Counted from the first letter of the stretch, positions 45,862 through 52,783 are shown. The stretch: DNA of 64,000 nucleotides from Dehalococcoidia bacterium (GCA_040882565.1 JBBEAZ010000018.1:1635-65634), one strand, 5' to 3'. Notes: generated from the letters alone by a model not told the origin. Made by a program: numbers and translations.

Positions 45862-48800
45862 ATGGCAAAGAACTCGTCGGGCCGTATCTTCACATATGCG
45901 GCAGCAATCGCAACCTTGGCCGCGCTGGCGGCTATTTTCGTCTACGGCGTGGCGCCTCGGGACACAGCCGAAGCCAACCACGGCGCGACGCCGGGAGTCG
46001 TCGACCTCGTCGCCATCGACGCCGACCCCAGCGGCAACAGCGCCCACGTCGTCGGCACGATCGATGAATGCATCGTCTCCAGCTCCGGCAATACGATCAA
46101 CGTCGACATCGTCGTCGACGAGGTCCACACCAACGACCGGCTTTCCGGGATCGACCTCAACTTCCTCTACAATCCGGCCCTGGTCAACGTCCTCAGCATC
46201 ACCGACAGTGGCAGCAGCGTGCTGATGGGGGCCGACGGCAGCGCCGTCCTCTCCTTCGGCTCCGATCCCGCGACAGACGCTAACGATGACCCCGACGCGA
46301 TCGCCGAAGGCCTCGACGGCTCGATCAAGATCTCCGCCGGTGACTTCGGCAACACCACGGCCAACTTCGGGCCCGGCCTGCTCGCCCGTATCTCCTTGCA
46401 ACTGGTGGGCACTGGCCAGAGCGACCTCACGCTCGCCGACACGCTCCTCGTCGACGGCAACAACGTCGCGCTGCCGGTCGTCTCGATCGCCGGCACCAAG
46501 ATCGCCGCCGGCGTGGCCTGCCCGGGCTCTGTGCCCAAGGCCGACATCGCCGTCAGCGACGTCGTCGTCGCCTCGCCGGCCTCGGTTAACGCCGGCGCCT
46601 CCTTCCAGGTCACAGCCGACGCCCTCGTCACGAATAATGGCCCGGATGCGGCCACCGTCGACGTGGAAACGACCCTCTCCCTGCCGTTCGACTGCTCGAC
46701 GGCCTCCGCCAACCCGATCATCAGCCTGGACGTCTCGCTGGCGGCCAGCGCCAGCGGCCGCTACCCGTCTCCGGCCGCCGTCTGGGACGTCAGTTGCACA
46801 CAGGCGTCCAATCACAACTTCTCCGTCACCGTGGCGGCCGTGACAGATCCAGCCGAGACCGTCGACAACGTCCAGACCAACAACCAGGCCACCGGCCAGG
46901 ACACCACTGCGATCGCCGCCGAGGCCGATGTCAAGCTCAGTGCGGTGGTCTTGACCGTGCCCGCACAGACCATCGTTGGCAAGTCGTTCGATGTCTCGGT
47001 CGCCGCGACGGCCCACAACAACGGGCCCCTTTCATCAGTCGCTGCCACGGCCTTCTTCACGTTGACGTCGCCGCCACAGTGCGATATTGGACTGGCCAAC
47101 TTTGACGATCAGGCTTCGTTCTCACTCGTCGCCTCGCAGGCGGTGTCCCTGAACCCGGGCGAGATCCACTGGCGCGTGACCTGCAGCCAACCTGGCACGG
47201 CCTCGTTCAGTGTTTCCGGCCAGCTGGTCCTCGGGCAGCTGCACGTCACAGACACCAATACCGCTAACAACATTAGCTCGGACGGTGCCGACAGCGCGTC
47301 CGTCATCGGCGCCTGCCAGGTGGATACCGACCCAGAGGGAAACCCCAAGCAGAGCGTCCCGCCGGCGCTCCTCCTCGCCCTCGCGGGAATCGGTGCCTCG
47401 GTGCCGGAGGAACAGCAGATCCCGTTGGACTGCCGCTTTAACTGGACATTCGACGACAACGGCACCAATATCGTCGACGACTGCGAGCTCAATCTGATCG
47501 AGCCCGTGCCCTGCAACATCACCATCGACGAAAGCGTTGATGAGATCGGCGGCACGCCGCCAGGCCAGCCTGGCAGTCGCCTGGCGCCGATCGCCGTCAA
47601 CTTCATGTCCGCCGGCATTGCCTTCGCCCCCGACCTCGACGTGCCCAACGGCGCAGTCGCCGGCAGCGGCAGCTACAGAATTCGTACCGACGCCGGCCTC
47701 GGCACCAACGGCGGCGAATGCGTCACCGACGCCATCTTCAATCCGACGGCTTCCCTGGAAGGCGCGATCGCCGGCAACGCCCCGGACTCCAACCTCGACG
47801 CGGCGCTCGTTGACCCCCTCGTCTGGCCGAACGACCTCAACGGCGAGCGCGCGGCGGTCGAGGATGCCTTGAACCTTGACGGGCAGCCGCCCGCGGCGAT
47901 GACCCTCTGGTCACGCACCGTCGTACCCCTGGAGATCACCGGCGTGCTCTCGTTGGCTTTGAACGTCCTGATCTGGAAGATCGATGACCCGGTCCTCGAA
48001 ACCCTGACCGACTCAGAGTGGATCATGGTAGCCTTCCCGGGCGACGCCGTTAACCCGGACGCCCCCGGCCTGATCGGCGGCAACCCTGACGCTGATGACC
48101 CACCTGACGAGGGCGGTACCTTCTACTGCACCCCCAACCGTCAGGTCTTGACCTTCAACGGCGAAGTCGGCGGCGTTGTCCGCAACACCTGCGTCCTCCC
48201 CGACCAACAGATGGGCTGGGCTCTGTGGGACCCGAACGCCGCCGATTTCACCGGCGATGACAGCTGGCGCTCCAACCTCTCGCCATGCTCGTCCGACACT
48301 GACGGCGACGGTCTCACCAATACCGAGGAGGCCTTCTGGGGCACCAGCAATGCAAACACCGACAGCGACGGCGACGGTGACCTGGACGGCGCGGACAACT
48401 GCCCGGCAACCGCCAATGCCAACCAGCTGGACTACGATGGCGATTTCTACGGCGACGCCTGCGACCCGGACATCGACGGTGACGGCTCGGCGAACGCCAA
48501 CGACCTCTGTCCGAACACGGTCGTCGGTGATGGCGCAGATGCCGCCGGTTGCTCGCAGGCCCAGGTCGACGCTGACGCCGACGGCGCCTGCAACGCCGGC
48601 GCCCCTTCCGGCGGCCCGACGCCGCCCTGTGCCGGCACGGACCTCTGCCCGAACACTGCGACGGGCGCCGCCACCGATGCTGCCGGTTGCTCGCAAGCGC
48701 AGGTAGACTCCGATGCCGACGGCGCCTGTGACGCCGGCGCGCCTTCAGGGGGCCCGGAGCCCTGTACAGGCATCGATAATTGCCCCGGCCTATCCAACCC

Positions 48801-49176
48801 CGGCCAGTCCAACGTCGACGGTGATGCTTTCGGCGATGCCTGCGACGGCTGCCCGGCAGTGGCGACGGACTGGGTCGTGCCGGCAAACGACGACGACTGC
48901 GACGGCTACAGCACGGCCGATGAGATGCTGATTGGCACCGCGGCCAACACTGCCTGCGGCTTCACCGCAGGCGGTGACCCCGCCTCGGAGAACTGGCCGG
49001 CGGATCTGGTGGAGAACAATGCGATCAACATCCAGGACGTGCTCGCCCTCAAGCCGGAGTTCGGCGGTACGGTCCCGGGCAGCGCCTCGGCACGCAATGA
49101 CCTCGTGCCTGACAGCGTAGTCAATATCGCTGATGTGCTCAGCCTGAAACCGTTCTTCGGCAAGACATGTAGCTAG
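45862..49176 (+). CDS. giant surface protein: N-terminal anchor, cohesin-like domain, CARDB-like repeats, thrombospondin type-3 Ca-binding repeats and a C-terminal dockerin-like module
   Basis: The cohesin-like core reads GIDLNFLYNPALVNVLSI. TSP3 repeats (DSDGDGDLDGADNCPATANANQLDYDGD) are present. Duplicated dockerin segments (DLVENNAINIQDVLALKP / DLVPDSVVNIADVLSLKP) close the protein. A GGAGGG ribosome-binding site precedes the ATG at 45862. Confidence 0.8.
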   Translation: MAKNSSGRIFTYAAAIATLAALAAIFVYGVAPRDTAEANHGATPGVVDLVAIDADPSGNSAHVVGTIDECIVSSSGNTINVDIVVDEVHTNDRLSGIDLNFLYNPALVNVLSITDSGSSVLMGADGSAVLSFGSDPATDANDDPDAIAEGLDGSIKISAGDFGNTTANFGPGLLARISLQLVGTGQSDLTLADTLLVDGNNVALPVVSIAGTKIAAGVACPGSVPKADIAVSDVVVASPASVNAGASFQVTADALVTNNGPDAATVDVETTLSLPFDCSTASANPIISLDVSLAASASGRYPSPAAVWDVSCTQASNHNFSVTVAAVTDPAETVDNVQTNNQATGQDTTAIAAEADVKLSAVVLTVPAQTIVGKSFDVSVAATAHNNGPLSSVAATAFFTLTSPPQCDIGLANFDDQASFSLVASQAVSLNPGEIHWRVTCSQPGTASFSVSGQLVLGQLHVTDTNTANNISSDGADSASVIGACQVDTDPEGNPKQSVPPALLLALAGIGASVPEEQQIPLDCRFNWTFDDNGTNIVDDCELNLIEPVPCNITIDESVDEIGGTPPGQPGSRLAPIAVNFMSAGIAFAPDLDVPNGAVAGSGSYRIRTDAGLGTNGGECVTDAIFNPTASLEGAIAGNAPDSNLDAALVDPLVWPNDLNGERAAVEDALNLDGQPPAAMTLWSRTVVPLEITGVLSLALNVLIWKIDDPVLETLTDSEWIMVAFPGDAVNPDAPGLIGGNPDADDPPDEGGTFYCTPNRQVLTFNGEVGGVVRNTCVLPDQQMGWALWDPNAADFTGDDSWRSNLSPCSSDTDGDGLTNTEEAFWGTSNANTDSDGDGDLDGADNCPATANANQLDYDGDFYGDACDPDIDGDGSANANDLCPNTVVGDGADAAGCSQAQVDADADGACNAGAPSGGPTPPCAGTDLCPNTATGAATDAAGCSQAQVDSDADGACDAGAPSGGPEPCTGIDNCPGLSNPGQSNVDGDAFGDACDGCPAVATDWVVPANDDDCDGYSTADEMLIGTAANTACGFTAGGDPASENWPADLVENNAINIQDVLALKPEFGGTVPGSASARNDLVPDSVVNIADVLSLKPFFGKTCS

Positions 49177-52400: not shown

Positions 52401-52783
52401 CCAACCCCAGCCAGTCAGACGTCGATAACGACGCCTTCGGCGACGCCTGCGATGGCTGCCCGAGCGTCGCGACCGACTGGGCGGTGCCGGCGAACGACGA
52501 CGACTGCGATGGTTTCAGTACGGTCGACGAGATGATCCTCGGCACGGACCCTAACGCCGCTTGCGGGTTCACCCCGGGCGGTGACCCAGCCTCCGAGAAC
52601 TGGCCTGCGGACCTCGTGGAAAGCAACTCGATCAATATCCAGGACCCGCTGGCCCTCAAGCCGGTGTTCCTTGGCACCGTGCCAGACACTGCTTCAGTGC
52701 GCAACGATCTCGTCCCCAGCGGTGTAATCGACATTTCAGATGTACTCATGATGAAGCCGTTCTTCGGCAAATCTTGTAACTGA
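49460..52783 (+). CDS. tandem paralog of the giant cohesin/CARDB/TSP3/dockerin surface protein (GTG start)
   Basis: Its first roughly 380 aa are identical to 45862-49176 and the remainder is about 75% identical. The GTG at 49460 is at the position equivalent to the ATG of copy 1. Confidence 0.8.
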   Translation: MAKTKSGRIFTFAAAIATLAALAAIFVYGLAPRDTAEANHGATPGVVDLVAIDADPSGNSAHVVGTIDECIVSSSGNTINVDIVVDEVHTNDRLSGIDLNFLYNPALVNVLSITDSGSSVLMGADGSAVLSFGSDPATDANDDPDAIAEGLDGSIKISAGDFGNTTANFGPGLLARISLQLVGTGQSDLTLADTLLVDGNNVALPVVSIAGTKIAAGVACPGSVPKADIAVSDVVVASPASVNAGASFQVTADALVTNNGPDAATVDVETTLSLPFDCSTASANPIISLDVSLAASASGRYPSPAAVWDVSCTQASNHNFSVTVAAVTDPAETVDNVQTNNQATGQDTTAIAAEADVKLSAVVLTVPAQIVVGRSFEVSATATVHNNGPLSSVSAGAFFTLTAPSQCDIGLANFSDHATFTLAASSAVALDAGDLHWRVTCNQPGPMSFSVSGQVVLGVLHVTDTNLGNNTGTDGTDTASVIGACQQNTDPEGNPKQTVPPALLLALAGLTAGNPVPEAQQVPLDCRFNWIFDDNGTNIVDDCELDLVEPVPCTITIDVSIDQVGGTPAGTPGARLAPIAVNFMSAGIEFTPDLGVPNGATAGSGSFSIRTDAGLGTNGGECTTDAIFNPTPSTEGGLVGNAPDSNLDAALTDPLVWPNDLNGERALVESSLQLNPIGPPALTLWSRTVIALEITGVLELSLNALIWHIDDPILQTLSDSEWVMVAFPGDAVNPDLPGPVGGDPDADDPPEGGGTFYCTPHRQTLTFLGEVGGVTRNTCVLPDQQMGWALWDPNAIDFAGDDSWRSNLSPCSLDTDGDGLTNTEETYWGTSPINTDSDADGDLDGADNCPATANADQADYDGDFLGDACDPDIDGDGSANASDLCPSTALGDGADAAGCSQAQVDADADGACNPGAPSGGPTPSCAGTDLCPNTAVGANADAAGCSQPQVDGDADGACNAGAPSGGPTPSCTGTDNCPGLANPSQSDVDNDAFGDACDGCPSVATDWAVPANDDDCDGFSTVDEMILGTDPNAACGFTPGGDPASENWPADLVESNSINIQDPLALKPVFLGTVPDTASVRNDLVPSGVIDISDVLMMKPFFGKSCN

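Follow-up and report, generated by a model that had tools for sequence, protein, structure and literature searches.

Gene pair and shared tract

A stretch of 64,000 nucleotides from an uncultured Dehalococcoidia bacterium (GCA_040882565.1, JBBEAZ010000018.1:1635-65634; the whole stretch is called the window below) carries two tandem genes, copy 1 and copy 2, for large proteins built from the same predicted parts in the same order (Table 1). A preliminary description of this DNA, made from the sequence alone, had located the genes at 45862–49176 and 49460–52783 and had given about 1105 residues for each product. The list of open reading frames (ORFs) and the NCBI records (1104 and 1107 residues) bear this out. 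The NCBI records of the identical sequences also have the starts that had been described, ATG at 45862 in copy 1 and GTG at 49460 in copy 2. The NCBI product name of both copies is only 'thrombospondin type 3 repeat-containing protein'. The motif AGGAGG is located 7–8 nt 5' of the start codon in copies 1 and 2 alike, and the 63-bp leaders, which had been regarded as related, are ~79% identical. The results below indicate that the genes are old tandem paralogues, and that recent gene conversion (non-reciprocal recombination) has overwritten ~1 kb at their 5' end.

According to BLASTN and the MAFFT alignment, the homology of the paralogues is continuous (45799–49230 against 49396–52837), and the overall identity is 84%. 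A perfect match of 1015 bp is embedded in this homology. The tract covers codons 30–368, which comprise the end of the signal peptide, the cohesin-like domain, immunoglobulin (Ig)-like module 1 and 16 codons of module 2. The 3' edge of the tract is sharp, and from 46965 on the identity falls at once to 64–88% per 100 bp. The 5' side is graded, with 10 mismatches within 45862–45949 and then ~79% identity in the leader. The DNA outside the tract is ~75% identical overall. At the protein level, residues 31–369 are identical, four differences are found among residues 1–30, and residues 369–1104 are 79% identical. The preliminary description had reported an identical 5' stretch of 1.1 kb, identity of the first ~380 residues and ~75% identity of the remainder. 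The identical stretch is present and slightly shorter than reported, the residue identity does not extend to the N-terminus, and the value for the remainder is correct for the DNA and somewhat low for the protein.

Synonymous (dS) and nonsynonymous (dN) divergence between copy 1 and copy 2 was estimated by the Nei–Gojobori method. For codons 369–1104, the estimates are dS 1.16, dN 0.136 and dN/dS 0.12. The dS value is 0.004 for the tract codons 30–368, and 0.19 for codons 1–29. As a dS of 1.16 outside the tract is near saturation of synonymous sites, the duplication is old. The dN/dS of 0.12 outside the tract indicates that both copies are kept by purifying selection. The difference in dS between the tract and its surroundings rules out chance or selection alone as the origin of 1015 identical bases, and constraint cannot explain the tract because the synonymous sites are identical too. 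The gene is single-copy in five related loci (L002, L003, L004, L005 and L006). Thus, the duplication is specific to this lineage. L002 and L003 show synteny comprising a gltD-like oxidoreductase gene, a small gene, the large protein and a 151-aa lipoprotein-like gene.

In-register identity far above that of the flanks, with synonymous sites included and seen again in independent data, identifies the tract as the product of recent gene conversion. The preliminary description had named gene conversion, and as its alternative a recent partial re-duplication. The alternative is very improbable. The tract is in perfect register and free of indels, no junction scar is present, and continuous older homology is found on both flanks; conversion is therefore favoured over a fresh partial re-duplication. 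The graded identity on the 5' side (codons 1–29) is what repeated conversion with shifting end points typically leaves.

Assembly of the repeat

Exact repeats of 1 kb are hard for short-read assemblers, and the duplication or its identical 5' region might accordingly be a wholesale assembly or scaffolding artefact. The locus was examined in a second metagenome-assembled genome (MAG), GCA_040903865.1 (locus L001). Over 22.5 kb this locus and the window are colinear and 99.9% identical, and L001 contains the 1015-bp tract as well. Both MAGs probably stem from a single study and a single pipeline. Logan contigs come from a different assembler; each is a per-run de Bruijn assembly with k = 31, which stops at repeats. 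The junction evidence is taken from the runs SRR27977658, SRR27977661 and SRR27977662.

The contig L010 (SRR27977658), which holds the third protein described below, enters copy 2 from downstream and stops at 50533. This position lies within the tract, 30 bp (k − 1) from its 3' edge. An inter-copy contig that begins at 46935 was therefore predicted beforehand, and its 746-aa fragment (copy 1 residues 359–1104) was then found. This contig, L012, extends over 46935–49577 and overlaps the tract by 30 bp at each end. The upstream contigs L014, L015 and L016, from three runs, all end at 45979, 30 bp beyond the last copy-specific base. The Logan ends overlap the tract by exactly k − 1 = 30 bp at all four junctions. 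Two copies of the tract are required because the inter-copy contig enters the tract at both ends. According to these junctions, the topology upstream–tract–inter-copy–tract–downstream is real, and so are the tract edges. In addition, each gene has an intact diverged part of 2.3 kb, on which purifying selection acts. A wholesale artefact is thus scarcely credible, and is excluded for practical purposes. A profile scan with the family alignment found no further assemblies of this species in genome contigs.

Differences between the two assemblies

Comparison of the MAGs over 22.5 kb shows 23 differing sites. All but one of them lie within the tract, where these 22 sites make up 11 matched pairs, each at homologous positions in copy 1 and copy 2 (variable sub-segment in Table 1). 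Ten of the 11 paired changes are synonymous, and the other gives A325T. Outside the tract, one difference was detected in ~20.5 kb, G versus A at 49057 (L001 9598); it affects the first base of a codon in copy 1, in the dockerin-proximal part of the gene. Genome contigs and metagenome contigs were also scanned for the exact pattern, with N at the variable sites, and gave no match.

Two explanations of the matched pairs were considered. In the one, the tract is only near-identical (~98.9%), and copy 1 truly differs from copy 2 at the 11 sites. The assemblers would have merged the bubbles and written one allele into both copies, so that each assembly is a collapsed consensus. The only variable place is exactly where the consensus is ambiguous, the predominance of synonymous changes is as expected of old paralogue differences, and no extra biology is needed. 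However, all 11 sites switch together between the assemblies, and the other parts of the tract (571 bp and 113 bp) show no difference in either assembly. We give the collapsed consensus even odds; it would modify the explanation by conversion, in that the conversion would be older or patchy. In the other, concerted evolution is real. The copies would be identical within each strain, and the strains would differ by a 331-bp patch. This patch would have come in by recombination or become fixed in opposite directions, and very frequent conversion would have carried it over to the sister copy. The internal identity of each assembly over the same 1015 bp and the complete linkage of the 11 differences are consistent with this explanation. 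It needs at least two recombination events, whereas only one other substitution arose in ~20.5 kb. Concerted evolution is plausible at rather less than even odds, and we lean slightly towards the collapsed consensus. Under both explanations, the identity is no less than 98.9% in the tract and ~75% in the flanks, and gene conversion stands.

The matched-pair pattern is a practical warning: where repeats in a metagenome assembly are identical, the identity may be an artefact of the consensus. The variable site 46851/50449 is located 114 bp from the first copy-specific base (A at 46965 in copy 1, C at 50563 in copy 2), and single reads could span both; for this locus, one 150-base read could settle the choice between collapse and true identity.

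Domain architecture

Domain scans were performed with the full proteins, then with each segment alone, and with family profiles. In the full-length Pfam and NCBIfam scans, only the thrombospondin type 3 (TSP3) repeats are supported. Together with structural models, the segment scans point to the following order of parts: a signal peptide, a cohesin-type β-sandwich, two Ig-like modules, a 324-aa domain, the TSP3 repeats and a dockerin-like end. The whole architecture recurs among relatives of ~1100 aa.

The N-terminus had been called an anchor. It looks like a cleavable signal peptide instead, since the hydrophobic stretch is followed by A-E-A/x-H-G (the slash marks the putative cleavage site), in which A36, E37, A38, H40 and G41 are invariant in five orthologues.

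The next segment had been described as cohesin-like, and this is supported. The Pfam family Cohesin (PF00963) has a gathering score of 24.1 bits. The domain of copies 1 and 2, scanned alone, gives 19.7 bits; the relatives P0017, P0019, P0020 and P0024 give 16–22 bits, and the orthologue P0005, which is ~50% identical in this domain, gives 37.4 bits over profile positions 8–126 of 139. The profile matches of the domain in PDB are weak (E 0.08–1), and 8 of the 8 are cohesins. The AlphaFold2 model of residues 39–484 shows three β-sandwiches with a mean predicted local distance difference test score (pLDDT) of 81. As single-domain matches, Foldseek finds the cohesins 6kgf_C (template modelling score, TM, 0.74; root-mean-square deviation 3.3 Å), 4dh2_C (TM 0.68) and 5lxv_A (TM 0.62), and also 2w1n and 3l8q. 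With the β-sandwich fold present in the model, residues 39–222 are predicted to be a cohesin-type domain. A more distant relative with 37% identity (L007 8001–11468) apparently has two serial N-terminal cohesin-like modules.

The segment that follows had been assigned to CARDB repeats. Separate scans of the two Ig-like modules gave no match to CARDB (PF07705), even with E values up to 10 allowed. The sole match is a weak one of module 1 to DUF11, 15.8 bits against a cut-off of 24.6; module 2 has none. According to the AlphaFold2 model and Foldseek, the fold of both modules is a generic Ig-like β-sandwich, and the CARDB assignment is not retained.

The central domain is the largest conserved part of the protein, and was missed in the preliminary description. 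Searches of Pfam, NCBIfam and PDB with sequences and profiles gave nothing but noise. An exhaustive profile search of 1.84 billion entries found the domain in 31 cluster representatives. No other part of the family is as well conserved; the mean column identity is 75%. The AlphaFold2 model of residues 485–808, calculated with 10 sequences, has a mean pLDDT of 34 and is unusable.

The TSP3 repeats had been recognized correctly. They match PF02412 with 29.2 and 30.1 bits (cut-off 25) and show the DxDxDGxxDxxD pattern with cysteines. In PDB, the region matches COMP (3fby, E 1.5e-17, five matched stretches) and also thrombospondins. A 46-aa Cys-containing unit, CP.T..G...DA.GCSQ.QVD.D.DG.C..GAPSGGP, is located at 48495–48788 and at 52099–52392. 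Its copy number is two in copies 1, 2 and P0003, three in P0004 and one in P0005.

The C-terminus had been taken as a dockerin-like duplicated Ca-binding segment. A tandem duplication of ~22-residue segments, DLVENNAINIQDVLALKPEF and DLVPDSVVNIADVLSLKPFF, each a putative loop followed by a predicted helix, is plain in the sequence. The C-terminus of copy 1 gives 15.5 bits with Pfam Dockerin_1 (PF00404, gathering score 22.9 bits) over profile positions 2–53 of 57. The gathering score is passed at the homologous position by P0014 (24.8 bits) and P0019 (23.3 bits), relatives that share the central domain. With the family profile, 11 of the 12 matches in PDB are dockerins; the best is 2y3n_B (E 0.0011). 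D1, D12, L14, K17 and P18 are conserved across the family in the repeats. The homology points to a dockerin-type module, although an atypical one. The canonical calcium ligands of dockerins are Asp or Asn at loop positions 1, 3, 5, 9 and 12. In copies 1 and 2 alike, both repeats have Val at position 3; those of copy 2 also have Ser at position 5. The loop is canonical in more distant relatives, such as P0014 with DLDNNRVVNGSD. Because of Val at ligand position 3 in both repeats, calcium binding by this segment is doubtful. The duplication and the likeness to dockerins hold, and the Ca-binding part of the earlier assignment is in doubt.

Proposed function

Cohesin and dockerin are the 'plug and socket' modules known from cellulosomes. 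In the mechanism proposed here, the proteins would be secreted, disulfide-bonded and calcium-loaded, and contacts of the cohesin–dockerin type would hold them at the cell surface or to each other. The partner of the dockerin may be the cohesin of another molecule, the cohesin of the paralogue, or that of the cohesin-only protein encoded at 54519–55919. Conversion would keep the shared socket module alike in both paralogues while the central domain and the dockerin diverge, and alike cohesin modules would keep both paralogues compatible with one partner. Equally, the tract could lie where it does for neutral reasons, simply because recombination happened to occur there. The proteins P0045–P0048 from other metagenomes (~300 aa) have a signal peptide, a cohesin-like domain of the same type, a low-complexity linker and a C-terminal transmembrane helix. 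This layout could be that of membrane anchors which receive dockerin-bearing proteins. The preliminary description had raised self-assembling cohesin–dockerin surface lattices as a possibility; such self-assembly may be plausible, and it has precedents. Assembly by cohesin and dockerin is put forward tentatively, and the odds are somewhat against it.

Several points weigh against the explanation as a whole. In copies 1 and 2, the cohesin and the dockerin are both below the Pfam gathering scores. Val3 and Pro18 in both dockerin repeats make the calcium dependence and the helix length different from those of canonical dockerins. In canonical scaffoldins, a dockerin usually does not bind the cohesin of its own polypeptide. 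The central domain may be the part of the protein that does the actual work. Within the tract, the perfect identity is uncertain, as the matched pairs fit a collapsed consensus or concerted evolution. The explanation as a whole, which comprises conversion, architecture and the proposed docking, is given a probability of roughly 0.7. Its evolutionary and architectural part is highly probable.

Two other views of the function were considered. The proteins may be adhesins or envelope proteins whose function resides in the central domain and the calcium-binding repeats, with the cohesin-like and dockerin-like ends as unpaired structural modules. The central domain is the best conserved part and defines the family, the dockerin lacks a canonical calcium ligand, and the function of non-cellulosomal cohesin and dockerin modules is called generally unknown in a review (PMC5244752). 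However, a cohesin-like start and a dockerin-like end co-occur across the whole ~1100-aa family, and short membrane-anchored proteins with just this cohesin type (P0045–P0048) are the expected layout of a docking system. We consider the adhesin function a serious candidate at slightly under an even chance. A further and unlikely view is an undescribed envelope-assembly system of Dehalococcoidia, which would comprise the paralogues, the cohesin-only neighbour and the downstream lipoprotein. The atypical, perhaps calcium-independent dockerin would enter the cohesin of the next subunit, and the resulting head-to-tail polymers would display the 324-aa domain. The conversion would be selected, as identical sockets would let both paralogues join one lattice while the displayed parts diverge.

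Neighbouring genes and other features

A third cohesin-like paralogue had been noted at 54519–55919, and this is supported. Its N-terminal cohesin-like domain is 33% identical to that of copies 1 and 2, and gives 21.1 bits with Pfam Cohesin (cut-off 24.1). This protein has no dockerin and no central domain. Within the 64-kb window, no further cohesin-like, dockerin-like or central-domain sequence was found beyond the three genes. The third gene overlaps by 26 bp (54519–54544) the 3' end of a convergent arginase-family gene.

The 151-aa lipoprotein-like gene lies directly downstream of copy 2. Its position is kept in the single-copy relatives (L002 13425–13880 and L003 6881–7339, 43–46% identity). 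The searches found no relative of its product in Pfam or PDB. It is a possible partner of the surface protein.

On the other side of the pair, a DUF559/REase_MTES_1575 gene (Vsr-like endonuclease fold) at 44813–45658 (+) occupies the slot of a DUF3237 gene in L002 and L003. The GC content is 57.5% at 45000–45999 against ~65% around. These two features suggest a local replacement just upstream of the duplicated unit. An rpmH-rnpA-yidD-yidC-jag cluster is located at 56856–60538 (−), with a PQQ-type beta-propeller gene between yidD and yidC. A replication origin beside the locus was considered and rejected; DnaA boxes are at chance level, and the turn of the GC skew at ~53–56 kb follows the coding strand.

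Homologous hairpins follow the stop codons of both copies (Table 1). The hairpin of copy 1 is a possible terminator or stabiliser. The scan for consensus terminators did not report these post-stop hairpins, which have no U-tract; they were found by eye and by folding. Promoter-like matches are not credible, as they lie inside the coding tract. The Rfam scan of the whole window gave no match, so no regulatory RNA was found in the leaders. Long minus-strand ORFs (such as 45757–47016 and 49337–50950) were rejected as genes and are regarded as high-GC artefacts; the proteins of the plus frames have conserved orthologues and a low dN/dS.

Table 1. Coordinates of the gene pair, its parts and the neighbouring features, counted from the first letter of the window
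Feature	Position	Strand	Remarks
Leader of copy 1	45799–45861	+	Homologous to 49396–49459, ~79% identical; contains AGGAGG ribosome-binding site
Copy 1	45862–49176	+	1104 aa, ATG; NCBI MEX1194297.1
Signal peptide (predicted), residues 1–38	45862–45975	+	Basic N-terminus, ~20-residue hydrophobic core, A-E-A/N-H-G
Conversion tract, copy 1 side	45950–46964	+	1015 bp, perfect match to 49548–50562
Cohesin-like domain, residues 39–222	45976–46527	+	Pfam PF00963 sub-threshold; model matches cohesins
Variable sub-segment	46521–46851	+	11 sites differ between the MAGs; same 11 changes at 50119–50449 in copy 2
Two Ig-like β-sandwich modules, residues 223–352 and 353–484	46528–47313	+	From model; weakly DUF11-like
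Central 324-aa Cys-containing domain, residues 485–808	47314–48285	+	In no described family
TSP3 repeats, residues 809–1003	48286–48870	+	Two 46-aa Cys-containing units included
Dockerin-like duplicated segment, residues ~1045–1104	48994–49173	+	DLVENNAINIQDVLALKP ... DLVPDSVVNIADVLSLKP
Hairpin 3' of copy 1 stop	49198–49231	+	13-bp stem, no U-tract; −39.2 kcal/mol, z −5.5
Copy 2	49460–52783	+	1107 aa, GTG; NCBI MEX1194298.1; domain order as in copy 1
Conversion tract, copy 2 side	49548–50562	+	Offset 3598 from copy 1 side
Homologous hairpin 3' of copy 2 stop	52802–52840	+	No U-tract; z −3.8
151-aa lipoprotein-like gene	52915–53370	+	Lipobox-type Cys after hydrophobic stretch; directly downstream of copy 2
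Third protein, 466 aa	54519–55919	−	Predicted signal peptide, cohesin-like domain, TSP3-type repeats, Pro/Thr-rich tail

Comparison with known systems

Gene conversion between tandem surface-protein paralogues is commonplace. As in known concerted evolution, the identity seen here is in register within older, diverged paralogues, with one edge sharp and the other graded. Only the coincidence of the tract with a putative interaction module sets this case apart from known conversions.

Outside cellulosomes, cohesin and dockerin modules have been recorded in all three domains of life, mostly with no known function (PMC5244752; also PMC10066038). As cited in these two papers, they were surveyed by Peer et al. 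(2009) and are abundant in, for example, ANME archaea. The case described here is like them in that modules of the cohesin and dockerin types occur on putatively secreted proteins, and the organism shows no sign of a cellulosome; the presumed role is adhesion or surface assembly. The modules of copies 1 and 2 differ in being divergent and below the Pfam thresholds, and in their combination with TSP3 repeats and the undescribed 324-aa domain.

A cohesin and a dockerin on one non-cellulolytic protein have precedents (PMC4611034, PMC5244752). The dockerin of Ruminococcus bromii Amy4, a protein of the amylosome, binds the cohesin of Amy4 itself, which allows multimerisation (PMC4611034). Archaeal proteins with both modules, from Archaeoglobus fulgidus, are cited in the same paper. 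Copies 1 and 2 resemble these proteins in having a cohesin-like and a dockerin-like module in one polypeptide. Amy4 is a GH13 enzyme with canonical modules and measured binding, whereas the present proteins have no catalytic domain, an atypical calcium loop and a putative binding.

The arrangement of a cohesin, Ig-like or fibronectin type III (FN3)-like spacers and a terminal dockerin is also similar to that of the adaptor and anchoring scaffoldins of cellulosomes, such as ScaA/ScaB of Acetivibrio cellulolyticus and the C. perfringens GH84C cohesin-FN3 structure 2w1n. The Foldseek matches of the N-terminal model include the structures 2w1n and 3l8q. Unlike scaffoldins, the proteins have a single cohesin, no carbohydrate-binding module and no S-layer homology (SLH) or sortase anchor, and no dockerin-bearing partner enzymes are encoded within the 64-kb window. 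With thrombospondin, COMP and bacterial TSP3 surface proteins, they share DxDxDGxxDxxD repeats with paired cysteines; this likeness is confined to the repeat region. The score for MtsC, an NCBIfam equivalog, is 66 against a cut-off of 350, so the proteins are not members of that family.

Each ingredient is already known. The novelty lies in this architecture, in the atypical loop of the dockerin, in the undescribed central domain and in the lineage of the host. Whatever the proteins do, their 324-aa central part is a very rare domain that had not been described before. The host belongs to the Dehalococcoidia, a class that is poorly known and hard to culture. If the modules pair, the locus would be a compact, non-carbohydrate case of cohesin–dockerin docking that builds a cell envelope. 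It would also be a natural case of recombination that keeps an interaction module identical in otherwise diverging paralogues.

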